Assembly: GCA_964439045.1 (NCBI GenBank)
Contig: CAYTMO010000002.1
Location: 1 to 55,635, forward strand
Reading direction: 5' to 3'
Origin: an uncultured Candidatus Saccharibacteria bacterium
Lineage (GTDB): Bacteria > Patescibacteriota > Minisyncoccia > Phycocordibacterales > UBA9973
Length of the DNA: 55,635 bases
The position numbers and the translations under genes were made by a program. Positions 1,448 to 53,332 of the stretch are shown in pieces (the first letter of the stretch is position 1; each line of letters opens with the position of its first letter). Under the pieces are notes generated by a model. It saw nothing but the letters and a program-made list of their open reading frames with translations, did not search any database and was not told where the DNA came from.

Positions 1448-1661
1448 TGGTATAATCAGTTTACAATTGAATACAGTCGACCTAACCCCTTAGGATTTCT
1501 TAAGGATATGGTTGCAAATCGCAACGAGCATAAAGAACCTATCACTAGGGTCGCTCGTTGCGTTATATCTGGAAACGGATATATGAGTCGCAAGACTCTA
1601 CCTAGTGGTAGGCTTTTTGCGTCTTACCCTAGAATTATAAATAATACGCAAGAAAAAAATT
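1448..1661 (+). promoter_or_regulatory. extended -10 promoter plus about 200-nt structured leader with terminator-like hairpin
   Basis: TGGTATAAT at 1448-1456. Hairpins at 1481-1494, 1520-1529/1553-1562 (10 bp perfect), 1564-1569/1578-1583, 1585-1598 (GCAA tetraloop) and 1598-1611 followed by TTTTT. Confidence 0.5.
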
Positions 1662-2117
1662 ATGAATAACCAAAATCGCAACGAGCAAGTTTGGAGTAAA
1701 GTTCTTAGTTCAAATGAAGAACTTAAATATGAGTTTTCAATAGGAAGCCAATATATAAAAACTTACCTCATTATTTGGGGAATTATTAGTTTGTGTACTC
1801 TTATGCTTGCTCCTATTGTATTTGCCTTGGCATTTCTGTATCTAAAAATATATTTACCGAAAGCAAATATTTATGGATTTACAAATAAAAGAGTCCTAAT
1901 ACATAGAGGTTTTTTCTCAACAGATTTAGTTAGTGTAGATTACAGTAAAATAACAGATGTTACAGTGAAAGAATCTTTCCTGGATAAAAGTTTTACTAAA
2001 AGTGGACAGTTGTATATAAACACAGCGGGATCAGGTGGTAAAGAAATCATCTTACAACATGTAGCTAATCCTTATGAGATTAAAAAGAAACTCGATGAAT
2101 TGAGAGATGGTAATTAA
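1662..2117 (+). CDS. membrane protein with bacterial PH-like domain (bPH_2/DUF304, YdbS/YdbT-like)
   Basis: Hydrophobic hairpin IIWGIISLCTLMLAPIVFALAFLYL, followed by a segment (VDYSKITDVTVKE...LYINTAG) resembling bPH_2 from memory. Confidence 0.6.
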   Translation: MNNQNRNEQVWSKVLSSNEELKYEFSIGSQYIKTYLIIWGIISLCTLMLAPIVFALAFLYLKIYLPKANIYGFTNKRVLIHRGFFSTDLVSVDYSKITDVTVKESFLDKSFTKSGQLYINTAGSGGKEIILQHVANPYEIKKKLDELRDGN

Positions 2118-4214: not shown

Positions 4215-4964
4215 TTAAAGCTTTACCGCAGTCTCGCCAGTGAGCCTCTCAAGCCTTGTGAGGGATGTTTGTACATATGCCTCATCAAGCTCTATTCCGA
4301 TACACTTTCGACCCAAGTGCTGACATGCGACCCCTGTTGATCCACTTCCAAGAAATGGGTCATATACAACATCACCAACTCTGGTTGAGTTAAGGATTAT
4401 TTTCCTTAATAGTCCAATTGGTTTTTGCGTGGGGTGGAGTTTAGATTTATGAGGTCTAGGATGATAGATAACATTTCTCGCTTTAGACTGTTCCATTTTG
4501 TGTTTGCCAAACCATCCGTATGCAATCAGTTCATACATCGACAAATAATCCTTTCTGCTCATGACAGGTTGATTCTTTAACCAAATAATCATTTGGCTAT
4601 AATAAAAACCAGCAGACTTCATTCCTAAACGTAAGCTTGGAAACATTAAGTCGGCATTGAAAATATAGACCGCATTGTATTCTTCAAGATATGGAATAGT
4701 TGCACCTAAATATTTGCGAGTGAAATTCTCGTATTTTTCTTCTGATTGCAAATGGTCATTGGCGATAATTTTTTCATTATTAACACCGAGCTTTGAGAGT
4801 CCTATTTTATTTTCTACATAGGCAACACCATAAGGAGGGTCAGTCACGACTGCTCTTATTTTATTGCTTCCTATAACCTTTGCGACAAATTCTTTATCCA
4901 GAGAATCGCCACACCCTATAATGTGATTTCCGACTCTAAAAATATCTCCTTTATTTATTTTCAT
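4215..4964 (-). CDS. DNA methyltransferase (N6-adenine/N4-cytosine, N6_N4_Mtase family)
   Basis: Motifs VVTDPPYG and HPTQKP...DPFLGSGSTG. Overlaps the upstream gene by 14 nt. Confidence 0.9.
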   Translation of the reverse strand: MKINKGDIFRVGNHIIGCGDSLDKEFVAKVIGSNKIRAVVTDPPYGVAYVENKIGLSKLGVNNEKIIANDHLQSEEKYENFTRKYLGATIPYLEEYNAVYIFNADLMFPSLRLGMKSAGFYYSQMIIWLKNQPVMSRKDYLSMYELIAYGWFGKHKMEQSKARNVIYHPRPHKSKLHPTQKPIGLLRKIILNSTRVGDVVYDPFLGSGSTGVACQHLGRKCIGIELDEAYVQTSLTRLERLTGETAVKL

Positions 4965-6219
4965 AGATTTTCTTCGCCTTAAGATTGGTAAATTTTTCCC
5001 AACGATCTATGATAATCGTCGCGAAGAGTAAATCTTTTTCGACCCCACGCCATACACGATTTAATTCTTCACATGCAATCAAATCAGATCCGCTTCCAGC
5101 GAAGCCAGAAAAGATAATATGCATAGGTGCAGAGCATCGTTTGAAAGGCTTTTCATTTAAAGAAACTGGTTTCTGTGTCGGATGTAAATAGCTTTGAGTG
5201 TTATCTCTTTTAACAAGCCAAAGGTCTATCATGTCCTGCAATTCATCAAGAACCTGATTACCAGTTGTTACTTCTTGATTAAGAATTTCATTTGCATTTC
5301 TGAAGTTTGGATTTAAGTATGGTTTACCAAGCGTGCCGTAAGTACATGGCTCATAGAGCCTATTCCAAGCAATTTTCGGAGTGCAGTTCTGGTTCGATTT
5401 TACCCAAAGACAAACTCTTCTTTTCTTGATTTGATATTTATCATACAGAGATTGAGTTAATCCTATGCTATTTGGGTCTGACCAGTAAAAGAAGTGCGAG
5501 TCTGGTTTGGCAAACTTTTTTGCTGTCTCCATGCTCTTACTAATAAATTCAGAGTATTCCTCTTCGCTTTTATTATCTTTGTATTCTCCACCATATTTTC
5601 CTCCGTATTCCCAAGAAATATTATAAGGTGGATCACAGAAGACAATATCGGCGAGATCGTCTTTCATGAGTTCTTTAACTTGGTCTTCATTAGTAGAGTC
5701 GCCAACTAAAAGGCGGTGCTTCCCGAGTTCCCAAACTTCTCCTAACTTCACTTTTGGTGCCACTGTTTCTTTAATAGCTTTTTCAACATCAAAATCATCT
5801 TCAACAAGATCCACATCATCAAATAGATTCTGTAATTCTTCATCTCCAAAACCAACATCAAGAAGCATGTCCATATCGAACTCTTTCAAGAGTTCTTCAT
5901 CCCATGACCCAGTATTCTTATTAAGTCTCAAGTTGAGTTCTTTTTCTTCTTCGAGTGTTAGTTCCCGTGAAGGAATCATGCACTCAATTTCTTCAATACC
6001 AAGATCCGCATACACTTTTATTCGTTGTTCACCTCCAATAATTATATTCGCCCGTGATCCTATATTTAGAACTATTGGCACGACTGTACCAAATTCTCTA
6101 ATAGACTTTTCCAAGTCTCTTCGCTCACTCTCGCTTAACTTTCGCGGATTGTATCCGTTTTTGATCAGGGCACTAAGTTTGCGAGAACTATGTGACCATG
6201 TGGGCTTTTGTTTTGCCAT
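4951..6219 (-). CDS. ParB-like nuclease N-terminal domain fused to DNA methyltransferase
   Basis: N-terminus NPRKLSE...IIGGEQR (ParB/Srx-like), then CDPPYN and HPTQKP...FAGSGS methylase motifs. Confidence 0.85.
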   Translation of the reverse strand: MAKQKPTWSHSSRKLSALIKNGYNPRKLSESERRDLEKSIREFGTVVPIVLNIGSRANIIIGGEQRIKVYADLGIEEIECMIPSRELTLEEEKELNLRLNKNTGSWDEELLKEFDMDMLLDVGFGDEELQNLFDDVDLVEDDFDVEKAIKETVAPKVKLGEVWELGKHRLLVGDSTNEDQVKELMKDDLADIVFCDPPYNISWEYGGKYGGEYKDNKSEEEYSEFISKSMETAKKFAKPDSHFFYWSDPNSIGLTQSLYDKYQIKKRRVCLWVKSNQNCTPKIAWNRLYEPCTYGTLGKPYLNPNFRNANEILNQEVTTGNQVLDELQDMIDLWLVKRDNTQSYLHPTQKPVSLNEKPFKRCSAPMHIIFSGFAGSGSDLIACEELNRVWRGVEKDLLFATIIIDRWEKFTNLKAKKIYENK

Positions 6220-20979: not shown

Positions 20980-20990
20980 TAGCTTAAAAC

Positions 20991-21027
20991 AAAAACCCCT
21001 CGCTTACGAGCGAGGGGTTTTTGTTTT
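20991..21027. terminator. bidirectional intrinsic terminator
   Basis: AAAAA-CCCCTCGCT-tacg-AGCGAGGGG-TTTTT. Confidence 0.9.
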
Positions 21028-21039
21028 AAGCTTTTCTTT

Positions 21040-25958: not shown

Positions 25959-26040
25959 TGTGGCAAGAATGTAGCAAGAACAGTTCTTGCTACATTCTTG
26001 CCACAAGAGAATCTTTATTACTGCCTTTTGCTAGTCCACA
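25959..26040. repeat. palindromic repeat, copy B (47-nt perfect palindrome plus TTGCTAGTCC tail)
   Basis: 23-bp arms at 25959-25981/25983-26005. TTGCTAGTCC recurs as in copy A. Confidence 0.7.
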
Positions 26041-26132: not shown

Positions 26133-26245
26133 AGCAGAGAAAGTAATTGTGGACCCGACCAGAGTTGAACTGGCACTGCACATTTCTAAGACGGGCGTGC
26201 TACCTTTAACACTACGGGCCCTAAAGCTTATATTACTTTCTCTGC
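26133..26245. repeat. perfect 14-bp inverted repeat enclosing the tRNA-like gene
   Basis: GCAGAGAAAGTAAT at 26133-26146 and ATTACTTTCTCTGC at 26232-26245. Confidence 0.8.
26150..26221 (-). tRNA. atypical tRNA, anticodon UAG (Leu codon) with short variable loop
   Basis: Hand fold: GGGCCCG/CGGGTCC acceptor, GTGT/GCAC D stem, anticodon stem CCCGT/ATGTG (one C-U mismatch), loop CTTAGAA, 4-nt variable loop, T arm GCCAG-TTCAACT-CTGGT, A73. Confidence 0.65.
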
Positions 26246-26536
26246 TGGAATTTTAAACTATTTTATTTTCAAAAAAACTACCTCATAAGGATACCTACCT
26301 TTAAAAGTGCTTACTTTTAAAGGGTTATATAACATATTATACCTGCCATATAGAGTGTGAGCAAGTAATGCATCATAAAGTGTTATAATGGGGGTAATGT
26401 CAAACTTAAAAAATAAAAATGTAGTAAAAATAACGCTCTTTGGGACATTCAACGGGACAAATAAAGGGCATCTTATTTTTTTAAACAAGCAAAAAAGATA
26501 TCCACAAATTTTCTTTAGTGAGTTTTAAGAAATTAA

Positions 26537-31345: not shown

Positions 31346-32664
31346 AAAAAATTCTTATTTCGTTTTTGTTTATGGAAATTAATAGCAAATCTATGAGACT
31401 CGGCGTTCAATGCTATTATTTCTTTTTTATACTTTTGAGCTATTGTAGTGTCTCCTAAAATTTCTCTGGCTTTATGTTTATCATCTTTTACCACTCCTAC
31501 AACTGGGATATTTAGTTTAAAATCTTGTAAAACTTTCTTAGCTACATTTACCTGCATAATGTTTCCATCTACTACTATCAAACTAGGTGTATGCCACTCT
31601 GTATGCTTAAATCTTCTTTCCAATACTTCTCGGAGCGCTCCTGTATCATTTGCATTTTGCTGACTTCTAATAATGAACTTTTTATATTCATTTTTTTCTA
31701 ATTCACCGTTTTTCGATACCACCATCACCCCCACCATATTCTGCCCAGACATATGAGCAATATCGTAAGCTTCTATTCTAAGAGTTGGATTAGCAAGACT
31801 TTTTCGAGCAGTGGTGCTGTGTAACAGAATATCCCGAGAAAAAGTCTTGCTGACAGAATCATCTTTAATCAAAGCCACATCATTAATATGCCCTAAAGCG
31901 AAAATCTGTCTTTTTATCTCCCCTGCTTTCTCAAATTCTTTTTGCTTTGCATACAATTTCATTTCTTTTTGCAAACTTTTTAAAATTGATTGCTTTTTGC
32001 CTTCAAAAAAAAGTTTTATGTTTTTGATATTTTTTAGCAAAATTTCTTTTTGTTCTGGAGCAAGTTTTATTTGTCTATAAAATTCATATGTTCCTTTGAC
32101 TTTAGACTTTTCATCCAAAAATGGAAATATCTTTCGTACTAATTCCAAAGCAGTTTTGAGTTGAGAACCATTGGGGAATGGGCCGTATATATTTGTGAAA
32201 GAAACAGGGAAATTTTTCGTCGCGTCGGAGCCCTTTAGGGTAAAATGCGAAAAATTTCCCTGTTTCTGTAACTCTTTGCCTCTCACTATCAAAACTTTCG
32301 GCAACTCTTCTTTGGTAATACAAACATAATTAAAGCTCTTATCGTCTTTTTCTTTTGTATTAAAGTATGGCTGGTATTTTTTAATTAAGCTCGCTTCAAG
32401 TATCAAAGCTTCTAGAACACTATCAGTTTCCTGCCATTTTATACTATTTGCTCTAAAAACCATTTCTAAAATTAGTGGCCCACGAGTTTCGATCAAATCT
32501 TTACTAAAATAACTTCGTACTCTGTCTTTCAGGCTTGTTGCTTTACCGACATATAACAACCCCCCACCTTTATAGCCCCCTTCGCCAAGCTTCGTTGGGC
32601 CAAGGAAAAAGTAAACTCCAGGTTTTTCTGGCAAATTAAATTTTTTAAAATCATTTAATTTCAT
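31339..32664 (-). CDS. uvrC: excinuclease ABC subunit C, short form without C-terminal (HhH)2
   Basis: GIY-YIG (PGVYFF...LLYVGKATSLKDRVRSYF), UVR motif (FEKAGEIKRQI), endonuclease domain ending HRFAINFHKQKR. 441 aa. Confidence 0.9.
   Translation of the reverse strand: MKLNDFKKFNLPEKPGVYFFLGPTKLGEGGYKGGGLLYVGKATSLKDRVRSYFSKDLIETRGPLILEMVFRANSIKWQETDSVLEALILEASLIKKYQPYFNTKEKDDKSFNYVCITKEELPKVLIVRGKELQKQGNFSHFTLKGSDATKNFPVSFTNIYGPFPNGSQLKTALELVRKIFPFLDEKSKVKGTYEFYRQIKLAPEQKEILLKNIKNIKLFFEGKKQSILKSLQKEMKLYAKQKEFEKAGEIKRQIFALGHINDVALIKDDSVSKTFSRDILLHSTTARKSLANPTLRIEAYDIAHMSGQNMVGVMVVSKNGELEKNEYKKFIIRSQQNANDTGALREVLERRFKHTEWHTPSLIVVDGNIMQVNVAKKVLQDFKLNIPVVGVVKDDKHKAREILGDTTIAQKYKKEIIALNAESHRFAINFHKQKRNKNFLK
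32200..32267. repeat. inverted-repeat-bounded in-frame element inside uvrC
   Basis: Perfect 20-bp arms AGAAACAGGGAAATTTTTCG/CGAAAAATTTCCCTGTTTCT. The core contains GTCGGAGCCC and GGGTAAAA. Confidence 0.8.
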
Positions 32665-32667
32665 AAA

Positions 32668-35394
32668 TTACTTTTTCTTTAGAACTTTCTTTAAATACTT
32701 GCCAGTGTAGCTGTTTGTATTATTTGCCACTTCTTCTGGTGTGCCTTTAGCAATCAACTTTCCACCATTTACTCCTCCCTCAGGACCAATATCTATAATA
32801 TAGTCAGAACACTTTACTATGTCTAAGTTGTGCTCAATCAATACAACTGTATTACCTTTGCTTACAAGCTGATTTAAAACTTCAAGGAGTTTTGCCACAT
32901 CATCATAATGCAATCCTACTGTAGGCTCGTCTAATAAGTAAATAGTCTTTTCTAAATGTGGACGATATAATTCACTAGAAATCTTTACTCTTTGTGCCTC
33001 ACCACCTGAGAGAGTGGTGGCAGATTGACCAAGCTCCAAGTATCCAAGACCCACATCCATAAGAGTCTTTAATCTATCTGAAATAGCCGGAATATCTTTG
33101 AAAAAAGTTAACCCTTCTTCTACAGTCATTTTCAAAACTTCATAAATATTTTTCTTTTTGTATTTTACTGTAAGAGTTTCCTTATCAAATCTTTTACCTC
33201 GACAAACATCACAAGTCACATACACAGTCGGCAAGAAATGCATTTCTACTGCTATCTCTCCATTGCCTTCGCAAGCTTCACATCTACCACCTTTTACATT
33301 AAAAGAAAATCTATTGGCCTTCCATCCACGAAAACGAGCTTCTTCTGTCTCAGCAAACAAATCACGAATATGAGTAAATGTCCCAGTATATGTGGCAATG
33401 TTACTTCTTGGAGTTCTGCCTATTGGAGACTGATCTATAAGAATTGCACGAGTTAAATACTCTGTACCAGTGAATGAAGCACAGTTAAATACTTGCGCTG
33501 TCCGGTATTTCCTCTCAAGTCTGCCTTGCAGATTTTTATATAAGATCTCATACATAAAAGAACTTTTACCTGAGCCAGAAACTCCGGTGATAGAAGTCAT
33601 CACGCCGAGCGGTACTTCTACATTCATATTCTCTATATTAAAAACTTTTCCTCCAACAATACGAAGCACACCTTTCGCTTCGCGTCTTTTCTCTGGAATT
33701 TCTATTCTTGCTTCTTCGCGAAGATACGCAAGTGTGCGAGAATTATTTGTATTCTTTTTTGCAGTAAGCAATTCATCAAGCCAACCTTGAGCAACGACGT
33801 CTCCTCCGTGCACTCCAGCCTTCGGACCAATGTCTACAATGTAATCCGATGCATAAATAGTATCTTCGTCGTGTTCTACTACTAAAATAGTATTTCCCAA
33901 ATCTCGCAAGTTAAGTAATGTTTTTATCAGTCTATCGTTGTCTCTCTGATGCAATCCTATCGTTGGTTCATCCAATACATAAAGCGCACCTACAAGCCTA
34001 GAACCTAGTTGTGAGGCAAGGCGTATGCGTTGCGCTTCTCCACCTGAGAGGGTGTTTGCTTTACGAGAAAGTTGCAGATAGTCGAGTCCCACATCAAGCA
34101 TAAAAAGAAGCCTTGCTTCTATCTCACGAACCACAGGTAATGAAATTTCTTTTTCTTGATCTGTAAGTTTTAAATTTTTGAAAAATTGATAGGCCTCTGC
34201 AATAGACAAAGATGCAAGGTCTAAAATATTTATTTTATCTTTTACTTCTTTTTTATTCTTAACACTTTTATTTTCTTTAGTATTTTTATTTTCTAAAGTA
34301 TTGCCAGTCAAAAACACATTCAATGCTTCTTTTCTAAGTCTTGCGCCATTGCAAGAATCACAAGGCTCATCCCCTCCGAAATACTTTGAACCCAAGCCGT
34401 TACAATCTGGGCAGGCACCATACGGAGAGTTAAAAGAGAAAAGTCTTGGCTCTACTTCTGGAAAAGAAAATCCATCATTCTTACAAGCAAACTTTGCAGA
34501 CATTACGAATTCTTCTGTACCTATTTTTATAGTTACCAATTGATCAGATTCTAAAAGAGACCTTTCAAGTGCTTCTGCAAGGCGCGCCCTGCTCGCATCT
34601 TTATTATCGACAAATTCGTGTACTAAAAAATGGTCTACTAAAATATCTATATTATGTGCTTTATTTTTAGAAAGGGTTATTTGTTCGCGCAGCTTTTTCA
34701 TCACACCGTCTAGGCGGATTTCTGAGAATCCTTTGCCGAGCAAGTCATATAGAAGCTGATAGTATTCTCCTTTGCGTCCACGAACAATTGGAGAAAAAAT
34801 ACTGATTTCTGTCTCATCCCATTCTACGCCCATTACTTTTCGTTTTTTATTTGCAGGAACTTGGGAAGCAAAATCCTGATCCGTGTCGGAGCCCGTCGGA
34901 TTTTGACGGGTAAAACGGGCAGAATTTTGCTTTCCAAGTTCTTTGATTTTCTCAAGTATAAAATTTAAAATTTCTTCATTAGAAAGTTTTTTAATTTCTT
35001 CGCCACATTGTGGACAATGCGGATGCCCAATACGAGCGTACATCACACGCATATAGTCATATATTTCAGTAATAGTAGCTACGGTAGAGCGAGGGTTGTT
35101 GGATCTTGATTTTTGATCTATAGAAATAGCTGGAGAGAGTCCCGTGATTTCATCTACATCGGGCTTGGGCATTTGATTTAGAAATTGTCTTGCATAAGAA
35201 GAAAGACTCTCTACATACCTCCTCTGCCCTTCGGCAAAAATAGTATCGAAAGCAAGAGAGCTTTTACCAGAGCCTGAGACGCCAGTAATAACCACCATTT
35301 TGTTTCGTGGCATTTCTACATTTATATTCTTCAAATTGTGCGTCCGTGCACCCCTCACTATGATGCTATCATGCTTGTTTAACTTTTCTTTCAT
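32668..35394 (-). CDS. uvrA: excinuclease ABC subunit A
   Basis: [34 protein letters not shown], two ABC modules and zinc modules. 908 aa. Confidence 0.97.
34857..34941. repeat. inverted-repeat-bounded in-frame element inside uvrA
   Basis: 18-bp arms GAACTTGGGAAGCAAAAT/ATTTTGCTTTCCAAGTTC (one G-T). The core has GTCGGAGCCC, a CCCGTC/GACGGG hairpin and GGGTAAAA. Confidence 0.8.
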
Positions 35395-35464: not shown

Positions 35465-37144
35465 ATGAAAGAAGATAGCCTTGAGCAAAGAAAGCCGGCA
35501 TCAAAACAAGAAATACAAAAGATAAAACAACAATCTAGAGATGAGCTGGCTGGAACTATCCGTGAATCTAGAAGAAACCGAGATGAAGAATTAAAAAAAC
35601 TCGAAGAAGCAAAAAAGAGATTTTTTAAATTTTTATCCCTACAAAAAGACAAACCAAAAACAATCATACAGGAAATAAAAAACAAAGAAGGCGCTACAAG
35701 AAGATTATTAAAAGAAGGAAAATACGAAATTGATTTACAGGAAAAACTTCTATTGAAAGAGAGGGAGCAAGTTTTATATTCAACTATTATTGAACCTTTA
35801 TCTAAAATAAAAAATCTAATCTTAGATTATGAAAATCGAGATGAAGTTAAATCAATCTCAAAAAACTTCAGTGAAGAAAATTTCAGAATCTTTATGTCTG
35901 AAAAAGACCCAAATGAGGTTGGAGCTATAATTATAAAAATATTCGACCTTCTAAAAACCTCTAAATACTCCGACGCTTTCTATCAAAAAATAATTAATCT
36001 TTCAGAAGATTATTTTGAAGAAATTGAAGCTTTCTTACCAAACAACTTTCATTCTTTTTACAATGCTGAATTTATAAACAATTTAGTAGGTGCTCAATCT
36101 TTCACAGAGGGAAACCTGCCGGATGAAAAAATAGTCGAGGCTATTAAAAGCTTTGAACCATATTACAAAGAACAGGTTTCTTGGCAACACAGATACTCAA
36201 AGTTATCAAGTTTAACAAACTTCATATTAATTAAAGGACCTGACAGCCTAAAGGAGTGGATGAAAGAACAAATAAAAAGCGAAATAGAAAAAGAAAACTT
36301 TTCTATTATACCTATATTTAATAATTTTGATGTAGGATCCTCTCTTGAACTTGAAAAGGTCTTTGAAGAAAATATTTTCCAATATACACAAAAAAGATTT
36401 AGCATATCCAAAGAAGACTTTTTCTCTGCAGGGCATTCAAACACGGAAATATACTGGTCCGAAAACTTAAAGACAATGTGTAACATAGAACGAAAAATTA
36501 CTGGTGGAGTAAAAAGGTTATTAAAAGATTACGGGATTCATGAGTTCAATCGTCACCCACAAAAAATATTGATAAATCAATTAAAAGAGGAAAGCGTGGA
36601 TAGACCTTACGGAGTTGTGATATATCCACACAGTGACCATAACAATAATTTTGATAAAAAAGATACTGTCTTTAAAAATTTTTATGAAAAAGATAAAAAA
36701 AATCGTCTATTAAAGGTATTTGAAGTTGGTAGTAATCATGATCTTTTAAAATACTTAATAAAACTAAAAAGAAAATACAAACACAAAATATCATATCTTA
36801 TACTAGGAGGGCATGGCAGTACGGAGGGAGTCGAATTTGCCGATATGTTTATGTCTTACAAAGCCGGTACAAGTCAAGGAGAGTTAACAAAAGATGTTTT
36901 AGATAAAAGAGAAAAAACTCTTAAAATGATATCTGAATTTTTTACTCCAGACGCGACCATAGTCCTTGTGTCTTGTTCTACAGGAGCAGAAGGAGGGTTC
37001 GGAAGTAAACTTAGAGATAAAATAAATTTAAGAGTGTTGGCTCCAAAAGAAGATAGTAATCTAAAAAAACTAGAATTCAAAGACGGGAAGCTCGAAGTTG
37101 AGTATAATGTAGAAAAAAATGTATTTAACAAAATAGAAGTATAA
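35465..37144 (+). CDS. hypothetical protein with coiled-coil N-terminus and C-terminal His/Cys (GHG...SCS) domain
   Basis: LILGGHGSTEG ... IVLVSCSTGAEGG resembles clan-CD or DUF4347-like dyad spacing. Inference only. Confidence 0.65.
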   Translation: MKEDSLEQRKPASKQEIQKIKQQSRDELAGTIRESRRNRDEELKKLEEAKKRFFKFLSLQKDKPKTIIQEIKNKEGATRRLLKEGKYEIDLQEKLLLKEREQVLYSTIIEPLSKIKNLILDYENRDEVKSISKNFSEENFRIFMSEKDPNEVGAIIIKIFDLLKTSKYSDAFYQKIINLSEDYFEEIEAFLPNNFHSFYNAEFINNLVGAQSFTEGNLPDEKIVEAIKSFEPYYKEQVSWQHRYSKLSSLTNFILIKGPDSLKEWMKEQIKSEIEKENFSIIPIFNNFDVGSSLELEKVFEENIFQYTQKRFSISKEDFFSAGHSNTEIYWSENLKTMCNIERKITGGVKRLLKDYGIHEFNRHPQKILINQLKEESVDRPYGVVIYPHSDHNNNFDKKDTVFKNFYEKDKKNRLLKVFEVGSNHDLLKYLIKLKRKYKHKISYLILGGHGSTEGVEFADMFMSYKAGTSQGELTKDVLDKREKTLKMISEFFTPDATIVLVSCSTGAEGGFGSKLRDKINLRVLAPKEDSNLKKLEFKDGKLEVEYNVEKNVFNKIEV

Positions 37145-37154
37145 ACAAATAATT

Positions 37155-37631
37155 ATGGAAACAATTGTAAAAAGTGAAAAAGAATATAAATTAGGAGATA
37201 GTGTGACTCAAAAAAATATAATAAGTTTTGCAATTACCAGCTTTGCTATCTCAAGAAATAAAATGGACGCACAAATCTTATTTGTGGATTGGTTTATTAA
37301 AAGTAAAGCAAGTCAGAATCTGGGCGAAAACCCCGCAGACAAAGTACTATCAATGTATGAAAAGGCAATGGATAATGAACACAAAAATGAAAGTGTTGCG
37401 CAAATAATGGAAGCTTTTAATAAAGTCCAAGCTCATAACACTGGGCCTTCTGGTAAAGATTATGTTTTATCAAATTTTACAAAAGATTTTGAACAAGCTG
37501 TGACAACTGTAAAAGAAAGCAGATACGCTGATAATGTATTATGGTTTAATCTTGGAGTTGATTCAATTAATGTATACAATATGTCAAGCAGAGAGTTTAT
37601 AAACGCAATTAGTCCTTTATTTACAAAATAA
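37155..37631 (+). CDS. hypothetical protein (158 aa)
   Basis: ORF 10 nt after the preceding gene. No motif recognised. Confidence 0.55.
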   Translation: METIVKSEKEYKLGDSVTQKNIISFAITSFAISRNKMDAQILFVDWFIKSKASQNLGENPADKVLSMYEKAMDNEHKNESVAQIMEAFNKVQAHNTGPSGKDYVLSNFTKDFEQAVTTVKESRYADNVLWFNLGVDSINVYNMSSREFINAISPLFTK

Positions 37632-37636
37632 TTGAT

Positions 37637-39868
37637 TTACTTTTCCATCCTCTCTCTCAACACCCCTATCTCATCCCTTAGTATGGCTGCAGTTTCAAAG
37701 TCGAGTTCTTTGACGGCTTTGTTCATTTCCTTTTCTTTAATTTTAATTATCTTTTCATAGACTAGGCTAGTCCTCTCTTCGTCGGACATATGGAGCTTCA
37801 CTTCGGTTACATTGCCATCTTTTGTTTTCTTTTTAGTTACTGTGCTTTTGTCTAATGCGAGCTCTTTTGCATAAGCTTTTTTAAATACTTCAAGATCAAT
37901 AGAAAGCTCTGCGTTCACTGCTTTGCCGTGCTCGCTCTCCATAGCTTCGGTAATGTCTTTTATATTTTTCAAAATTGTCTTTGGGGTGATGTTATGTTTT
38001 TTGTTATAAGCTAGCTGAGTATTCCTCCTCCTGATAGTCTCTTTCAAGGCGCGCTCCATCGAGCCAGTAATCTTGTCTGCATAGAGTATCACTCGCCCTT
38101 CGCTATTTCTCGCTGCACGGCCTATAGTCTGAATGAGGGCAGTCTCACTCCTTAGGAATCCTTCTTTATCAGCGTCGAGTATCCCAATAAGTGCTACTTC
38201 TGGCAAATCTAAACCTTCACGAAGAAGGTTGACTCCTACTAACACATCAAATTTCCCTTTTCTGAATTCGGTTAGAATTTTTATTCTGTCTATTGTCTTT
38301 ACATCACTGTGCAAATACTCTGACTTAATTTTCTTATCTTTCAAGTATACAGACAAATCTTCTGCCATCTTTTTCGTAAGTGTAGTCGCCAAAACTCTAA
38401 AACCTCTCTTGATTGTATTTTCTGTTTCTTTTATAAAATCTTGAATCTGGCCGGGGTAATTTGAGCTCTTCGAAATGTGTTCGGAAGAATCTCCGCTACG
38501 AACAGAACTATCTTGCCCTTCCAGGGCAGAATGCGAATCCTGGAGAACATCTTTCGAAGAGCTAGCAGCCACAGGTCGAACAATGGTCTCTGGATCAACT
38601 AGCCCTGTCGGACGGATGATTTGCTCTACTATCTGCTCACTTTCTTTTCTCTCTACATCGCTTGGGGTTGCACTAGTGTATACTACTTGCCCGATTCTCT
38701 TTTCAAATTCAGGATATTTCAAAGGCCTATTATCCTTCGCAGAAGGAAGACGAAAACCGTATTCCACAAGTGTGTTTTTGCGAGAAGCATCGCCTGCATA
38801 CATACCATTTAATTGAGGCAAAGTTACGTGTGACTCATCAATAATAGTTAAGAAATCAGGTTCTTTGTTTTTTGTATGAGGGAAATATGAAAGCAAAGTT
38901 TCTGGTGCTTCGCCCTCCTTCTTACCAGAGAGGTGTCTGGAATAATTTTCTATACCAGAGCAATACCCCACTTCTTTAATCATTGCCAAATCATAATTAG
39001 TTCTTCTTTTGATTCTTTCTGCTTCTAAGAGCTTTCCTTCTTTTTCAAAATATTTGAGCTGAGCTGCCAATTCCTTTTTTATATTTGCTAAAGCAATTTT
39101 AGTTTTTGAATCTTCGGTGATGAAATGCTTAGTCGGAAAAACATAAATATCTTTTTCTTCTGCTAAGATTTTTGAAGACACAGGATCCACTTTTAAAATC
39201 TCTGAAATCTTCCCTCCTGACATCTCAATGACGTACATAAAAGTATCAGACACAGGCACGAATTCTACTTTAGAACCAATAGAGCGAAACTGCCCGGAAG
39301 AAAGGTCTGCATTAGTCCTTTCAAAATGAATTTTGATTAAACTTTTCATTAATGTAGTCCTATCCATTTTCATTCCTACTGAGAGCTTAAGATTTTCTTT
39401 CTCATATTCTTCTGGTGAACCTAAACCATAAATACAAGAAACAGAAGCGACAATGATGACATCACGACGAGTAAGGAGGGCCTGAGTGGAAGCGTGGCGA
39501 AGGCGGTCTATTTCTTTGTTTATCTGCGCATCCTTTTCTATATAAGTATCAGAGACGGGCATATATGCTTCTGGTTGATAGTAATCATAATAAGACACGA
39601 AGTAATGCACCGCAGCATCAGGGAAAAATTCTTTAAACTCTTGTGCAAGTTGTGCAGCGAGAGTTTTGTTATGCGCTATTACAAGAGTAGGCTTGTTCCA
39701 CTTGGCTATGACATTTGCCATTGTGAAAGTCTTACCTGTACCTGTAGCACCGAGCAATGTCTGCTTTCGCATACCTTTTTCTAAGCCTTTCATAAGCTCC
39801 GAAATAGCCTTCGGTTGGTCCCCGGCTGGCTCGAATTTACTCTTCAATTTAAAAATACCTTCAGACAT
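37637..39868 (-). CDS. uvrB: excinuclease ABC subunit B with Ser-rich insertion
   Basis: GATGTGKTF, DESHVT, helicase C motifs and C-terminal UVR (FETAAILRDEI). 743 aa. Confidence 0.97.
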   Translation of the reverse strand: MSEGIFKLKSKFEPAGDQPKAISELMKGLEKGMRKQTLLGATGTGKTFTMANVIAKWNKPTLVIAHNKTLAAQLAQEFKEFFPDAAVHYFVSYYDYYQPEAYMPVSDTYIEKDAQINKEIDRLRHASTQALLTRRDVIIVASVSCIYGLGSPEEYEKENLKLSVGMKMDRTTLMKSLIKIHFERTNADLSSGQFRSIGSKVEFVPVSDTFMYVIEMSGGKISEILKVDPVSSKILAEEKDIYVFPTKHFITEDSKTKIALANIKKELAAQLKYFEKEGKLLEAERIKRRTNYDLAMIKEVGYCSGIENYSRHLSGKKEGEAPETLLSYFPHTKNKEPDFLTIIDESHVTLPQLNGMYAGDASRKNTLVEYGFRLPSAKDNRPLKYPEFEKRIGQVVYTSATPSDVERKESEQIVEQIIRPTGLVDPETIVRPVAASSSKDVLQDSHSALEGQDSSVRSGDSSEHISKSSNYPGQIQDFIKETENTIKRGFRVLATTLTKKMAEDLSVYLKDKKIKSEYLHSDVKTIDRIKILTEFRKGKFDVLVGVNLLREGLDLPEVALIGILDADKEGFLRSETALIQTIGRAARNSEGRVILYADKITGSMERALKETIRRRNTQLAYNKKHNITPKTILKNIKDITEAMESEHGKAVNAELSIDLEVFKKAYAKELALDKSTVTKKKTKDGNVTEVKLHMSDEERTSLVYEKIIKIKEKEMNKAVKELDFETAAILRDEIGVLRERMEK
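38464..38563. repeat. inverted-repeat-bounded in-frame element inside uvrB
   Basis: 12-bp perfect arms AGCTCTTCGAAA/TTTCGAAGAGCT, central palindrome TGCCCT-tcc-AGGGCA at 38514-38528, and TGCGAATCCTGGAG motif. Confidence 0.75.
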
Positions 39869-47508: not shown

Positions 47509-49968
47509 CTACTTCACCTCTCCAAAGTTATCCCCCGAGCCGTAGTGCACTATAAGTGGTATATCTGTTTTGTATTTTAAATATGACCTTGTAAGCACAC
47601 CCTCCATTGCTTCAGATATTACTTTTTCTGCTTTTGTGAGGACGGTTTCTTCTATCTCATAAACCAACTCATCGTGAATCTGGAGCATAAGATGTGTTTT
47701 GTCTAAAAGTCCAGCTTTCGCCAAGTCTTCTTCTGCATAGCGAATAGCGAGCTTGATGATGTCGGCTGTGGCTGTGCCTTGGACTGGTGCATTAATAGCA
47801 GTGCGCTCTGCCATACTTTTCAAGAATGGAAGCCTGGAGTTTATATTTGGGAAATATCTCCTTCTGCCGAAAAGTGTCTCCGTATAAGTATGCTTCTTGG
47901 CATATTCTTTAACACTTTCTAAATAATCCCTCACACCAGAGAATTGATTAAAGTAATTATCATAAAACTTCTGCGCTTCTTCGCGAGTACCACCCAAGTT
48001 CTTACGAAGCGCAGAGACTCCCATACCATAAATAATTCCGAAGTTTATAACTTTTGCTTTTCTTCGCATTTCACTATCTACCTTGTCTATCGGTACTCCA
48101 AAAACAAAAGACGCCACCCCTGCGTGAATATCCTTTTTATCTTTAAATATTTCTGTCATCTTTTTATCTCCAGAGAGCATAGCCACCACTCGGAGCTCTA
48201 TCTGAGAATAATCAAAAGCTACAATCTTGTGTCCTTTTTCTGCAATGAAACCATTTCGAATTCTTTTGCCTAGCTCTGTCTTGATAGGCAAGTTTTGCAA
48301 ATTAGGATCTTGAGAATTAAATCTGCCTGTCGTAGTCGCATTTTGCACAAATTTAGAATGGAGTCTGCCATCCTCGCCCACCATAGCTGGAATCACATCT
48401 ACATAAGTAGAAAGCAATTTCTGTAATTCTCTGTATGCCATTATTTCTGTGATTATTGGATTGTCTTCTTCGAGCTCTTCTAATACTGATATCTTGGTAG
48501 AGAGGTTGCCACTGGCGTTTTTCTTTTTGGTGTTTTTGATACCTATTTTTACAAACAAAACTTCACTTAATTGTTTTGGAGAATTAATATTGAATTCGCT
48601 ACCTGCCATTTTATAAATCTTTTTTGTAAGTTTGTCTAACTCTGTATGATATTCTTTAGATAAGTTTTTAAAATACTTTTGGTCTATCAGGATTCCGTGC
48701 TTTTCCATTTTGTCTATTATTGGTATTATTGGCTTTTCTATTTCTTCATAAACTTTTTCCAAATTGTCACCCTTTAATCTTCCAAATATGTATTCTTTAG
48801 CTGTTTTGAAATCTTTTGTTTTAGCGTAATTTAAAATATCTTCTAACTTTGGATTGGAAATATCAGAATTCAAAAGCCACAAAGCTATAGAAGTCTCGTG
48901 AAGCTCTTTTGGGTCTACGTCTTCAGTAATTTCTTGCGGATTCTGGAGTAAAGAATTCTGTGTGTCTGGTTGAGCCTGCTCTTTTTTAGAATGTTGTAGA
49001 GGTGTCCCTAAGACCTGCGGATTCTTTACTCCAGAATCCGAATTACCATTCCCAAAAAAGGTTTTAAGCCTTGAGAACAAACTACGAAATTCAAACTCTG
49101 TAAAAACTTTTTCTATCTTACTCAAGTCTGCATTCTCCCAAAATGTTTTTTCTGGAATTTTAAAATCAATTGGTGCATCTTTGCGAATTGTTGCTAATGT
49201 TTTAGAAAACAATGCTTCTTCTTCATTGTCTTTTATAAGTTCAAAAATTCTAGGGGTGATGCCAATATCTTTAAAGACTTTATTATCTTTTTCTTTTTTG
49301 AAAGTTTTATAAAGATTCTCAATAGTTTGAAATTTATTTATAAGAGTAGTCGCAGTCTTCTCTCCTATACCTTTGATACCAATTATGTTGTCAGATGTAT
49401 CCCCTCGGAGTCCTTTGTAATCTGGGAGAAATTCGGGCTTAAAGCCAAACCTTTCTACAACCTTTTCTTCATCATAAAGAATCGTATCTGTTATTCCTTT
49501 TTTCAAGGTATAAACTTGCACCTTTTTATCATCAATAAGTTGCATTGTATCCATATCACCAGATGCAATTATGATATTAATGCTTTTATCTTTTTTAAAT
49601 TGTTCTACTATCGTACCCAACACATCGTCTGCTTCAAATCCTGGTGCATCATAAATAGGGATATTAAAAGCTTCAAAAATCTTGCGAGAGCTAATAAGTT
49701 GAGAAATAAGTGCATCATCTGCTTTTACTCGACCAGCTTTATAAGCATCGTAAGCAATATGACGAAAAGTCTTTTGCGGTAGATCATAACAAGCCACAAT
49801 ATAATCAGGCTTCAAGTCTGCAATTATTTTCATCAACATATTAGATACACCATAAAGCGCGCCTGTGGGCTCCCCACCCGAAGACAAAAAATCTGGCAAT
49901 GCGTGATACGCACGATGAATAATCGCGTGAGCATCAAGAAGTACTAAAAGCTTAGGTTTGTCTTTCAT
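47509..49968 (-). CDS. polA: DNA polymerase I
   Basis: 5' nuclease N-terminus, DYSQIELRVVA and QIHDELVYE family-A motifs. 819 aa. Confidence 0.97.
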   Translation of the reverse strand: MKDKPKLLVLLDAHAIIHRAYHALPDFLSSGGEPTGALYGVSNMLMKIIADLKPDYIVACYDLPQKTFRHIAYDAYKAGRVKADDALISQLISSRKIFEAFNIPIYDAPGFEADDVLGTIVEQFKKDKSINIIIASGDMDTMQLIDDKKVQVYTLKKGITDTILYDEEKVVERFGFKPEFLPDYKGLRGDTSDNIIGIKGIGEKTATTLINKFQTIENLYKTFKKEKDNKVFKDIGITPRIFELIKDNEEEALFSKTLATIRKDAPIDFKIPEKTFWENADLSKIEKVFTEFEFRSLFSRLKTFFGNGNSDSGVKNPQVLGTPLQHSKKEQAQPDTQNSLLQNPQEITEDVDPKELHETSIALWLLNSDISNPKLEDILNYAKTKDFKTAKEYIFGRLKGDNLEKVYEEIEKPIIPIIDKMEKHGILIDQKYFKNLSKEYHTELDKLTKKIYKMAGSEFNINSPKQLSEVLFVKIGIKNTKKKNASGNLSTKISVLEELEEDNPIITEIMAYRELQKLLSTYVDVIPAMVGEDGRLHSKFVQNATTTGRFNSQDPNLQNLPIKTELGKRIRNGFIAEKGHKIVAFDYSQIELRVVAMLSGDKKMTEIFKDKKDIHAGVASFVFGVPIDKVDSEMRRKAKVINFGIIYGMGVSALRKNLGGTREEAQKFYDNYFNQFSGVRDYLESVKEYAKKHTYTETLFGRRRYFPNINSRLPFLKSMAERTAINAPVQGTATADIIKLAIRYAEEDLAKAGLLDKTHLMLQIHDELVYEIEETVLTKAEKVISEAMEGVLTRSYLKYKTDIPLIVHYGSGDNFGEVK
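48937..49040. repeat. inverted-repeat-bounded in-frame element inside polA
   Basis: Perfect 20-bp arms CGGATTCTGGAGTAAAGAAT/ATTCTTTACTCCAGAATCCG. 10-nt direct repeat TGCGGATTCT at 48935 and 49016, exactly 81 nt apart. Confidence 0.8.
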
Positions 49969-52928: not shown

Positions 52929-52975
52929 TACATTCAGTTCGCTCCGTACAATTTTTTTGCTAAAAAATTAAAAAA

Positions 52976-53117
52976 GCATTAATCTCTAAACAATCCTTTT
53001 AGGGCTTTAGCCCAGAAAGTAACAAATTTTTGAAGGATAGACCCAGTGATTTAAAAAATACCAGAACGTCCTACGCAAACTTATATAACCGAAGGCTGAT
53101 TGCTTAGAGATTAATGC
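52976..53117. repeat. 142-bp intergenic element closed by a 20-bp inverted repeat (structured RNA or MITE-like)
   Basis: GCATTAATCTCTAAACAATC at 52976-52995 pairs 19/20 with GATTGCTTAGAGATTAATGC at 53098-53117. Inner hairpin at 52996-53019. Confidence 0.6.
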
Positions 53118-53332
53118 CTTTGATTCTTTGCAGAATCTTTGGAACACATCTCTTTTACTTCTATATAATTGTCAAAACCCTTACAAAGCTATTATACCTG
53201 CCACACCACACAATGAAATGCTATAATGTGGATAGCTATGTTCATAACCTGTTATGAAAGAAATATAGCATAGTTCACTTGTAATGTCAAGTTTTTATTT
53301 GTGAATATAAATTTTGTGTGTTGTAAAAAATA

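Follow-up and report, generated by a model that had tools for sequence, protein, structure and literature searches.

A probable translated selfish hairpin repeat in uvrB and the concentration of such elements in excision-repair and polA genes

Background

Why would a UvrB protein carry a serine-rich stretch of 39 amino acids where some of its orthologues hold only seven, and why is the DNA encoding this stretch a palindrome? The protein in question is encoded in the window, as we denote the whole 55,635-nt stretch of DNA analyzed here, which comes from an ultra-small bacterium of the CPR/Paceibacteria, and matches the UvrB of B. caldotenax (2fdc_A) with E = 1.7e-225. Its residues 434-472 (AASSSKDVLQDSHSALEGQDSSVRSGDSSEHISKSSNYP) separate VRPV from GQIQDFI. 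In insert-free orthologues, this linker consists of 7 residues (SEKGxYK), so that the net gain in the UvrB of the window is about 32 amino acids.

Palindromic DNA inside intact genes is known from other bacteria. In Rickettsia, RPE-1 to RPE-10 are short dispersed palindromic repeats that reside in frame in housekeeping genes (PMC10969869, PMC6649704). Intragenic REPs, which have been reported in Proteobacteria and Verrucomicrobia (PMC3733652), favor excision-repair, Pol I and recombination genes, a bias that is unexplained (Di Nocera et al. 2013, PMC3733652); the hosts of GTAG/CGTC REPs are UvrABC, UvrD, DNA polymerase I, recombination nucleases, tRNA synthetases and tRNA-modifying enzymes (PMC3733652, BMC Genomics 14:522). 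CPR/Patescibacteria are absent from the phyla listed in PMC3733652, and our search of the literature, which was not exhaustive, yielded no description of the elements discussed below in CPR.

Results

The uvrB hairpin

The hairpin spans 100 nt (38464-38563), in which two 19-nt arms, paired at 17 positions, enclose a core of 62 nt (Table 1). The inverted repeat proposed in the initial annotation thus lies exactly where it had been placed, with perfect pairing of the outer 12 nt of the arms (AGCTCTTCGAAA / TTTCGAAGAGCT). The central palindrome reported there is likewise present, at the apex of the core, and matches the nearly invariant CYTGGAAGGGCAAG in a widespread element family that we call family A; the insert is also, as claimed, richer in GC than its surroundings (0.50 vs 0.33-0.38 in the adjoining uvrB sequence). 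The computed fold energy of the 128-nt stretch around it is -44 kcal/mol for RNA and -22 kcal/mol for DNA, with z = -2.7 in both cases. The 5' arm, which has the same sequence in the relatives L081 and L188, resembles over its inner ~10 nt the corresponding, semi-conserved arm portion of family A and is locus-specific in its outer part. In L081, the stem is a perfect one of 18 bp, as against the two mismatches in the 3' arm of the window. The uvrB copy itself is stable across the three close relatives, and the case for its mobility comes from the family to which it belongs.

In the alignment with 2fdc_A, the insert falls between the residues matching T427 and G429, a position probably at the start of helicase domain 3. 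In the AF2 model, residues 434-471 are predicted as coil with pLDDT < 50, in a model that is poor throughout (mean pLDDT 58.5, 40 homologues).

Table 1. Coordinates of the uvrB element and of the other hairpins in the window
Feature	Position	Strand	Basis or remark
uvrB CDS, 743 aa, host gene of the element	37637..39868	-	Pfam UvrB, UvrB_inter, Helicase_C, UVR
Linker plus insert, residues 434-472, 39 aa	38453..38569	-	alignment of 120 UvrB homologues and 80 genome loci
uvrB 5' arm (coding sense), AGCTCTTCGAAAGATGTTC	38545..38563	-	
Family-A core, 62 nt, CTCCAGGATTCGCATTCTGCCCTGGAAGGGCAAG...TCTTCC, encodes LQDSHSALEGQDSSVRSGDSS	38483..38544	-	nhmmer core model, 63 bits
Inner palindrome TGCCCT-tcc-AGGGCA, apex of uvrB core	38514..38528	.	
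uvrB 3' arm (coding sense), GAACACATTTCGAAGAGCT	38464..38482	-	two mismatches to 5' arm
uvrC hairpin 1, arms 32195-32219 / 32248-32272, 28-nt family-B core TTTTACCC..GGGCTCCGACGCG	32195..32272	-	
uvrC hairpin 2, 14-nt perfect arms, 32-nt spacer, directly before RIEAYD	31792..31851	-	
uvrA hairpin, 22-nt arms (91% paired), 41-nt family-B core	34857..34941	-	
polA hairpin, 20-nt perfect arms, 64-nt family-G core AGGTCTTAGGG..CTCAACCAGACAC	48937..49040	-	

Family A in other genes and genomes

A search with a model of the core (nhmmer) gave 113 matches, and 95 distinct family-A copies are known in addition to that of the window, on Paceibacteria-type contigs; a metagenome scan was seeded with the core DNA pattern alone, that is, blind to the gene. 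Copies at one site are in part inherited, and because of this all such counts overstate the number of independent events. The peptide of the family reads LRRSHSVLEGQ..S..SEDSS, the net inserts measure 78-84 nt, and the host genes are uvrB (at two sites), polA, uvrA, uvrC and those for RecJ, the CCA-adding enzyme, IleRS and KsgA, with three copies apiece on the contigs L027, L015 and L142. As many as 45 of the 120 closest UvrB proteins are free of the insert. No orthologue was found to carry the peptide without an inverted repeat, as one would expect from the initial annotation's view of the insert: every peptide-bearing orthologue has a hairpin, and the arms differ. The stems are long and near-perfect, with energies of -35 to -66 kcal/mol.

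The reading frame is kept in all 79 readable uvrB loci (of 80; L067 is N-masked at the site). In the metagenomes, about 80 of 87 copies lie in the sense direction inside long ORFs and share one common frame, the antisense copies being open too, and only about 3 of 87 are intergenic, in contrast to GTAG/CGTC-tagged REPs, which lie mostly outside genes and downstream of ORFs. The long-ORF copies that were examined all have a length that is a multiple of three and contain no stop codon. Two frames are open, and the sense copies use essentially only the hydrophilic one, which is what one would predict for a translated peptide under selection to be tolerated.

The core of family A is conserved as DNA and not as protein: identity to the consensus is 0.865, 0.875 and 0.879 at codon positions 1, 2 and 3, respectively, so that the third position is not relaxed. 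Between the window and L081, a close relative with 91% nucleotide identity, amino-acid change amounts to 15% in the insert and 1.7% in the remaining UvrB, which is under strong purifying selection, and nucleotides diverge by 8.5% in the insert, compared with 31.6% for four-fold sites (p = 2e-9). The rate of change in the insert is 3-4 times lower than that of synonymous sites, a pattern that could equally reflect a function at the level of the sequence.

Conservation within family A peaks at the center of the element and falls off outward. Semi-conservation extends over the inner ~10 nt of each arm (GAACATGCTC / GAGCATRTTC), and a recurrent mismatch at arm positions 6-7 travels along with the element, whereas the outer ~10 nt are locus-specific. 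The arms (median 19 nt) are nonetheless complementary in each locus, with 93% of positions in Watson-Crick pairs; at arm positions 4-20, 73-98% are paired, as compared to 28-62% after shuffling the arms among copies, and all four pair types occur in nearly every one of these columns, position 10 being the exception. Part of this arm sequence belongs to the host gene. At uvrB site 1, the codons for YPGQI or RPVSE lie within an arm; at site 2, those for PDFL do, and their synonymous variants are mirrored by the opposite arm. On the coding strand, 60 of the arm mismatches are A.C as against 18 that are G.U-compatible, so that pairing in the mRNA is not preferentially preserved.

Hairpins in excision-repair and polA genes

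The window holds five hairpins, namely, two in uvrC and one each in uvrA, uvrB and polA. With spacers of 20-95 nt, the window contains 5 perfect inverted repeats of 12 nt or longer, vs a mean of 0.12 and a maximum of 1 in 100 dinucleotide shuffles, and four of the five are those of uvrC (two), uvrB and polA. Family B occurs twice (uvrC hairpin 1 and uvrA), and the site of uvrC hairpin 2 is occupied by family G in L048 and by family B in L029. The initial annotation had grouped the in-frame palindrome of uvrB with elements in uvrC and polA, and this grouping is supported by the five hairpins, by the wide distribution of the core family and by the empty sites described below. The likeness that it saw between uvrB and the polA arm is real, in that the arm segment CTCCAGAATCCGCA differs by 1 mismatch from the opening 14 nt of a variant of the family-A core; the polA core itself, however, belongs to a different family (G). 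With at most 2 mismatches, the family-A core start has 5 matches in the window vs 0.28 expected, and the polA arm harbors a remnant of such a start. The echo between the peptides SGDSS of uvrB and SDSG of polA turned out to carry no meaning that we could substantiate.

The same preference for host genes is seen across the uvrB-centered loci, where the density of perfect hairpins per 10 kb is 1.62 in polA, 1.11 in uvrB, 0.79 in uvrC and 0.28 in uvrA, as compared to 0.04 in other ORFs (p = 4e-12); relative to other long ORFs, hairpin density in the genes for nucleotide-excision repair (NER) and in polA is enriched about 20-40-fold. The unrelated family G uses the same set of hosts, in both orientations. 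Sampling centered on uvrB was considered as the source of this bias and is ruled out by the gene-blind metagenome scan, which placed 31 copies in polA, 25 in uvrB, 3 in uvrA, 2 in uvrC and 23 elsewhere.

Empty sites, growth and replacement

Comparison with close relatives captures several of these sites in different states. In L081, the uvrA and uvrC sites are empty and the polA element is re-armed, with the same core family as in the window between unrelated arms. The empty uvrC site of L081 reads ...CAGAAACA abutting AAAAAGTTTTCCTGTTTCT; relative to it, uvrC hairpin 1 of the window has gained 42 nt, which comprise the core and an inverted copy of the right flank, the 13 new nucleotides of that copy being the reverse complement of the flank and bounded by the pre-existing AGAAACA/TGTTTCT. 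In L188, uvrC lacks even the 15-nt mini-hairpin, which points to stepwise growth in the series L188, L081, window. The uvrA element, a gain of 72 nt in the window, is missing from both L081 and L188. Both empty sites are quasi-palindromes, and neither empty/filled pair shows a direct target-site duplication, the duplication of the flank being inverted. The duplicated flank is the left one in uvrA and the right one in uvrC; because opposite flanks are duplicated, there is no simple polarity for one replication model.

The cores, too, move between sites. At the uvrB site of L082, a different core follows an unchanged left flank, and L048 carries an identical 49-nt family-G core in uvrB and in uvrC between different arms. 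Family-A copies on one contig are more alike (identity 0.876) than copies at the same site on different contigs (0.81). The 28-62-nt cores are common to other loci and genomes, so that not all of the insert sequence is of local origin.

Discussion

How the hairpins might spread

We consider it probable that the uvrB insert is a translated selfish hairpin repeat that spreads by DNA-templated copying and has no role at the level of the protein. This reading builds on direct observations, namely, repetition, frame conservation, complementary but locus-specific arms, presence/absence and replacement in relatives, and homogenization within a genome. We infer that the insert is translated, that small hairpins already in place serve as landing pads, and that copying relies on template switching during replication or on conversion templated by a hairpin, and not on a dedicated transposase. 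Under such a scenario, the spreading unit would be the ~62-nt core, flanked on either side by some ~10 nt of the semi-conserved inner arm, and the outer ~10 nt of each arm would be made locally: the flank coding for constrained host residues would be copied, as its reverse complement, over the unconstrained flank, and the stem would thereby extend into the host gene. In uvrB, a family-A copy landed in frame in a putative surface linker would be read as a disordered, Ser-rich loop. Cores would be copied repeatedly between established hairpin sites of one genome, and one core family could displace another at the same site, with the consequence that the hotspots in uvrA, uvrB, uvrC and polA persist.

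Template-switch mutations create an inverted copy of adjacent sequence in a single event, with short inverted repeats as the switch points (PMC10710096), and the arms of the uvrC series resemble such hairpins (quasi-palindrome correction), microhomology included. The difference is that a conserved 62-nt core is shared here by many loci and genomes, which a purely local origin would not produce. Template switching accounts for the arms and not for the origin of the conserved core.

Alternative explanations

A possible but, in our judgment, unlikely alternative is that the insert is a non-autonomous transposon of the MITE or REP kind, mobilized in trans by an enzyme encoded elsewhere, e.g., an HUH/RAYT-type tyrosine transposase that works on hairpins of single-stranded DNA, the outer arms resulting from a preference for palindromic targets. 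The semi-conserved inner arms and the mismatch at positions 6-7 that travels with the element would fit this view, as would net inserts of 78-84 nt, which match a core with two short terminal repeats, the quasi-palindromic empty sites, and the precedent of REP dimers in larger palindromes and of REPs in uvrA, uvrB, uvrD and polA of other phyla (PMC3733652). Family A also shares with MITEs its small size, its non-coding and repeated nature and its inverted ends, and MITEs occasionally form in-frame fusions (PMC10969869). However, the duplications at uvrC and uvrA are inverted and not direct, and conservation is highest at the center, the opposite of what recognition of terminal inverted repeats entails. 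Synonymous variants of host codons recur as mirror images in the outer arms. Nor does the core resemble a REP unit, i.e., an unpaired 4-nt tag (GTAG or CGTC) with an 8-9 bp stem and a 4-5 nt loop, often arranged as head-to-head dimers (PMC3733652), and no parent IS was seen: among the 40 ORFs of the 55-kb window, Pfam revealed no transposase, recombinase or reverse transcriptase that could serve as a mobilizing enzyme. A REP dimer was considered in view of the CGTC and GTAG strings that the core contains, and rejected, as no REP-type stem-loop follows them. A phage vector is unsupported, given that the element showed no similarity to phage genomes and that the core pattern had no match in the IMG/VR viral contigs.

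Improbable, too, is a functional cis-element, that is, an RNA or DNA structure shared by uvrA, uvrB, uvrC, uvrD, polA and recJ that marks these genes or their mRNAs for common post-transcriptional control (e.g., through RNase III cleavage or a structure-dependent translation brake). The enrichment in NER and polA genes by two unrelated core families, the slow nucleotide divergence noted above, the strong stems and the equal gene bias in distant phyla (PMC3733652) would all be accommodated by such control. At a single site, however, cores, orientations and arm sequences are interchangeable, the uvrA and uvrC hairpins are missing from close relatives, and more than a third of the closest UvrB proteins do without the insert. 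The predominance of A.C over G.U-compatible mismatches also argues against such control, as do copies in genes for tRNA and rRNA enzymes and between genes, and Rfam gave no match either for the whole window (gathering threshold) or for the element alone (E <= 10).

Strong hairpins in coding sequence are a feature of known bypass elements (PMC6649704), and the insert might be skipped or cut from the mRNA like the byp elements of Magnusiomyces mitochondria or T4 gene 60; this is very improbable, since introns, inteins and bypass elements are free of frame constraint, whereas the copies examined here are stop-free multiples of three with a bias to a single, hydrophilic frame. An ordinary lineage-specific linker, or a chimera of assembly or amplification with an incidental palindrome, is scarcely credible: the peptide motif is recognizably kept in many orthologues and amplified DNA is known to yield inverted chimeras, yet the third codon position is not relaxed, amino-acid change is 9 times that in the rest of UvrB, one DNA core occurs in unrelated proteins, and the element recurs, with normal divergence, in independent assemblies of different studies (L081, L188 and more than 100 JGI/ENA contigs).

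Relation to known elements

By analogy, the closest kin of these translated hairpin repeats would be the Rickettsia RPEs and the intragenic REPs of repair genes, with a different anatomy. Like RPEs, which are thought to be translated as fold-compatible surface loops, selfish and decaying (PMC10969869, PMC6649704), family A inhabits a reduced genome, in several copies, inserted in frame into intact conserved genes. In contrast to family A, where only the center is conserved, RPEs have a peptide conserved over the whole element and reside in unrelated metabolic genes (PMC10969869); the ~20-nt, locus-specific arms made in part of host codons, the concentration in NER genes and polA, and the host phylum also set family A apart. 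With intragenic REPs, which encode inserts of 20-30 aa, family A shares an identical and equally unexplained host spectrum (PMC3733652); just as uvrB here has two sites, the R. conorii uvrB has two REPs (PMC3733652). In some species, no genes other than those of this spectrum are REP-tagged, and REP dimers are sometimes found within larger palindromes (PMC3733652). Those enclosing palindromes have a consensus (PMC3733652), whereas the ones around the irregular 62-nt family-A core differ from locus to locus and mirror host codons.

Among organelles, the GC42 family of yeast mitochondria, the byp elements and the coding palindromes of Nematomorpha are likewise GC-rich hairpins in AT-rich compact genomes, with presence/absence polymorphism, merging of palindromes, complementary arms, and template switching or repeat conversion as the proposed mechanism (PMC4478555, PMC6649704). 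Yet most yeast GC clusters lie between genes, and they show a target duplication of AG (PMC4478555), byps are not translated (PMC6649704), and the Nematomorpha repeats have no conserved mobile core and encode conserved protein with both arms.

Conclusions

The gene bias described for intragenic REPs is now quantified in CPR/Paceibacteria, with unrelated families of elements. The lengths of UvrB, PolA and UvrC in CPR bins are inflated and diversified by such inserts, which can be mistaken for lineage-specific domains or assembly errors. Near relatives provide unusually informative material, with sites that are empty, half-grown or filled, so that the origin and spread of hairpins without an obvious transposase, and the reason why repair genes are their habitat, are open to direct test. 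A bolder and rather doubtful version of the scenario would see here a transposase-independent mobile DNA, whose conserved core lands in the loop of a small pre-existing hairpin and palindromizes the host gene outward through fold-back or template-switch synthesis, and whose persistence in the genes for UvrABCD, Pol I and RecJ, enzymes that act on flaps, nicks and hairpins, would be no accident, the element either modulating these proteins or being tolerated only there. If true, transposase-independent palindromization would account for the presence of palindromic repeats in repair genes across phyla, which has been a puzzle for a decade.

Positions are in the window unless a genome locus (L-number) is named.
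Feature	Position	Strand	Description
uvrB	37637-39868	minus	743 aa
Inverted repeat in uvrB	38464-38563		19-nt arms, 17 paired, outer 12 perfect; 62 nt enclosed
Fifth hairpin, uvrC just before RIEAYD	31792-31851		14-nt perfect arms (AGCAAGACTTTTTC), 32-nt spacer
polA arms	48935-48948 and 49029-49042		contain CTCCAGAATCCGCA
Two ORFs between uvrA and uvrB	35465-37631	plus	559 aa and 158 aa
uvrB-uvrA junction	L081, 12238-12288		uvrA directly after uvrB
Inverted repeat around tRNA-Leu(TAG)	26133-26246		15 nt perfect (AGCAGAGAAAGTAAT / ATTACTTTCTCTGCT); extended, 36 nt at 81%
tRNA-Leu(TAG) gene	26149-26221
LOOT RNA	1479-1599		Rfam RF03000, 82.9 bits, full length
Weaker inverted repeat	1533-1706		overlaps LOOT RNA
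Intergenic palindromes	20981-21032; 25959-26005		perfect; arms 24 and 23 nt, loops 4 and 1 nt
Intergenic inverted repeat	52972-53121		24-nt arms, 92% paired; 102-nt spacer
Two adjacent N6/N4 DNA methyltransferase genes	4215-6219		second fused to ParB-like N-terminal domain
Conserved-arm repeats	L015, 16943-17022; L034, 4923-5045; L110, 10309-10360		14-nt arms (ATCCCGTTAGAG.. / ..CTCTAACGGGAT), variable centres

The palindromic insertion in uvrB

The initial annotation, made from the sequence alone, had proposed a palindromic in-frame insertion in uvrB; the finding is real and the reading essentially right. The enclosed 62 nt have a central TGCCCT-tcc-AGGGCA palindrome, the GC content of the element is 0.50 as compared to 0.33-0.38 in the flanks, and the folding of this stretch surpasses that of all RNA shuffles and of all DNA shuffles but one (z = -2.7 each). 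The window contains five perfect inverted repeats of this type, versus 0.12 expected from shuffles. The segment with the insert encodes UvrB residues 434-472, which fall between the positions that pair with T427 and G429 in the alignment to B. caldotenax UvrB and are unstructured in an AlphaFold model of low quality.

The nearest UvrB proteins are found in CPR bins of Paceibacteria/Nomurabacteria type, an assignment that the LOOT RNA of the window fits. At the insert position, 45 of the 120 closest UvrB proteins have a linker of 7-9 aa (SEKGxYK), 34 have a peptide of the same family as the window's (LRRSHSVLEGQ..S..SEDSS, encoded by the repeat core that we call family A), and 41 have other inserts. 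The reading frame is kept in all 79 readable uvrB loci (80 were taken, L067 being N-masked at the site). All inserts of at least 22 aa exceed their own gene in GC, and the DNA of most of them folds into a long hairpin, mostly of -35 to -66 kcal/mol.

A conserved core with local arms

In the family-A alignment, the central ~62-66 nt are conserved, and the flanking arms are wholly different between orthologues and still complementary. Specifically, the arms of 95 distinct copies have a median length of 19 nt and Watson-Crick pairing at 93% of positions; in the 45 copies that allow comparison in register, pairing at arm positions 4-20 amounts to 73-98%, versus 28-62% after shuffling of arms among copies. 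All four pair types occur in nearly every column from 4 to 20, position 10 excepted, G.T pairs contribute almost nothing, and pairing ends at ~20 nt. Since the inner ~10 nt (GAACATGCTC / GAGCATRTTC) are semi-conserved, recurrent mismatch included, we regard them as part of the spreading unit, the outer part of the arms being local. At a second uvrB site, directly 5' of the PDFLTIIDESH codons, the PDFL codons make the 3' arm and the 5' arm mirrors their synonymous variants (CCA/CCT/CCG/CCC); at the site occupied in the window, one arm in other lineages consists of YPGQI or RPVSE codons.

The core itself is a DNA entity rather than a protein motif. Identity to the family-A consensus is equal at codon positions 1, 2 and 3 (0.865, 0.875 and 0.879). 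Between the window and its close relative L081 (91% nucleotide identity), uvrB without the insert shows 13, 5 and 171 differences at the three positions; its amino acids have changed by 1.7% and its four-fold sites have diverged by 31.6%. The insert shows 3, 3 and 4 differences, its peptide having changed by 15% and its nucleotides by 8.5% (p = 2e-9 versus the four-fold rate). Thus, there is essentially no constraint on the peptide, and the nucleotides change more slowly than neutral sites, owing either to sequence-level constraint or to more recent copying.

Host genes

The five hairpins of the window lie in uvrC (two), uvrA, uvrB and polA, and none is found in RuvA, Fpg, ribonucleotide reductase or ~40 other genes. 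One of the two uvrC hairpins (31792-31851) had escaped the initial annotation; at the same site, other genomes have a core of family G (L048), the family of the window's polA hairpin, or of family B (L029), that of uvrA and the first uvrC hairpin. In loci selected by uvrB similarity alone, perfect hairpins per 10 kb number 1.62 in polA, 1.11 in uvrB, 0.79 in uvrC and 0.28 in uvrA, as compared to 0.04 in the remaining ORFs of 250 aa or longer (p = 4e-12), where both hairpins are in Tgt; one hairpin is also present in a UvrD/PcrA gene. A metagenome scan seeded solely with the core DNA pattern yielded copies in polA (31), uvrB (25), uvrA (3), uvrC (2) and the CCA-adding enzyme (~15), with IleRS, KsgA, RecJ and three intergenic places as further hosts. 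Family G, unrelated to family A, has the same host set.

Several other features were observed. The repeat surrounding the entire tRNA-Leu(TAG) gene is the sole strong hairpin of the window outside repair genes; the two perfect intergenic palindromes, unlike the intragenic elements in form, are probably terminators. The conserved-arm repeats, opposite to family A in architecture, include two intergenic copies and one in frame in a UvrD/PcrA helicase. The ORFs between uvrA and uvrB have no Pfam match; in L081 and another close relative, L188, uvrA and uvrB are adjacent, so that the repair cluster differs by an indel of ~2.2 kb that holds two genes on the opposite strand. No restriction enzyme was recognised near the methyltransferase genes.

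Turnover and proposed origin of the elements

Differences among near relatives point to movement and turnover of the elements. The 72-nt uvrA element is missing from L081 and L188. The uvrC site is without a hairpin in L188. L081 has gained 15 nt there, which form a 7-bp mini-hairpin, and in the window the loop of this mini-hairpin holds 42 further nt, namely 13 nt of reverse complement of the right flank and a 29-nt core. The polA elements of L081 and the window share the core family and have unrelated arms, and the uvrB site of L082 has another core next to an unchanged left flank. Identical 49-nt cores with differing arms are found in uvrB and uvrC of L048. Mean family-A identity is 0.876 within a contig versus 0.81 for the same site on different contigs, with no gain from orthology (0.809 at different sites). 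Cores occur in both orientations at the same sites, and hairpins are nested in one another, e.g. in L046. The polA arm sequence CTCCAGAATCCGCA agrees at 13/14 positions with the beginning of the family-A core in its LQNS variant, which occupies this polA site in other lineages; it looks like a leftover of an older family-A insert, reused as an arm of the current family-G core.

The simplest reading is that of a selfish hairpin repeat that is translated. As we infer its mode of spread, inverted copying from a DNA template, by template switching or hairpin-directed conversion, best explains the arms: the side that is free to vary would be overwritten with the complement of the constrained one, a known route for perfecting quasi-palindromes (PMC10710096; PMC6649704). 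Small pre-existing hairpins would be landing pads, which would explain the reuse of the same sites by different cores. The conserved core could be delivered by a trans-acting enzyme, although none was found within the window. A regulatory role, which the preference for certain genes and the low rate of nucleotide change would favour, is a minority possibility: the cores and their orientations are interchangeable, the hairpins are often absent, and arm mismatches on the coding strand (family A, L001-L187) are more often A.C than G.T (60 versus 18 overall, p = 2e-6; 24 versus 11 at outer positions), so that pairing is better kept in the template strand than in mRNA. This excess could reflect selection for weaker mRNA stems, or else mutation or repair that is biased to one strand.

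Relation to known repeats

Rickettsia is the classic case of palindromic repeats inserted in frame (PMC10969869), and the selfish elements described here are a variant of such protein-coding palindromes; they do not have the REP unit as defined, nor the target duplication of a MITE. Our literature searches found no paper describing such elements in CPR. The bias to repair genes is not new in kind, because Di Nocera et al. (2013) had described intragenic REPs with GTAG/CGTC tags from several phyla, conspicuously placed in genes for tRNA synthetases, pseudouridine synthases, UvrABCD, Pol I, RecBCD and DnaE/DnaE2 (PMC3733652). What is new is the phylum, the series of steps and replacements among near relatives, the homogenisation within genomes, and the anatomy, in which a long conserved core has locus-specific arms made of host codons and their complement. 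The REP gene bias was judged non-fortuitous, a mutator speculation being the sole explanation offered (PMC3733652); for this question, the element described here is an unusually good system.
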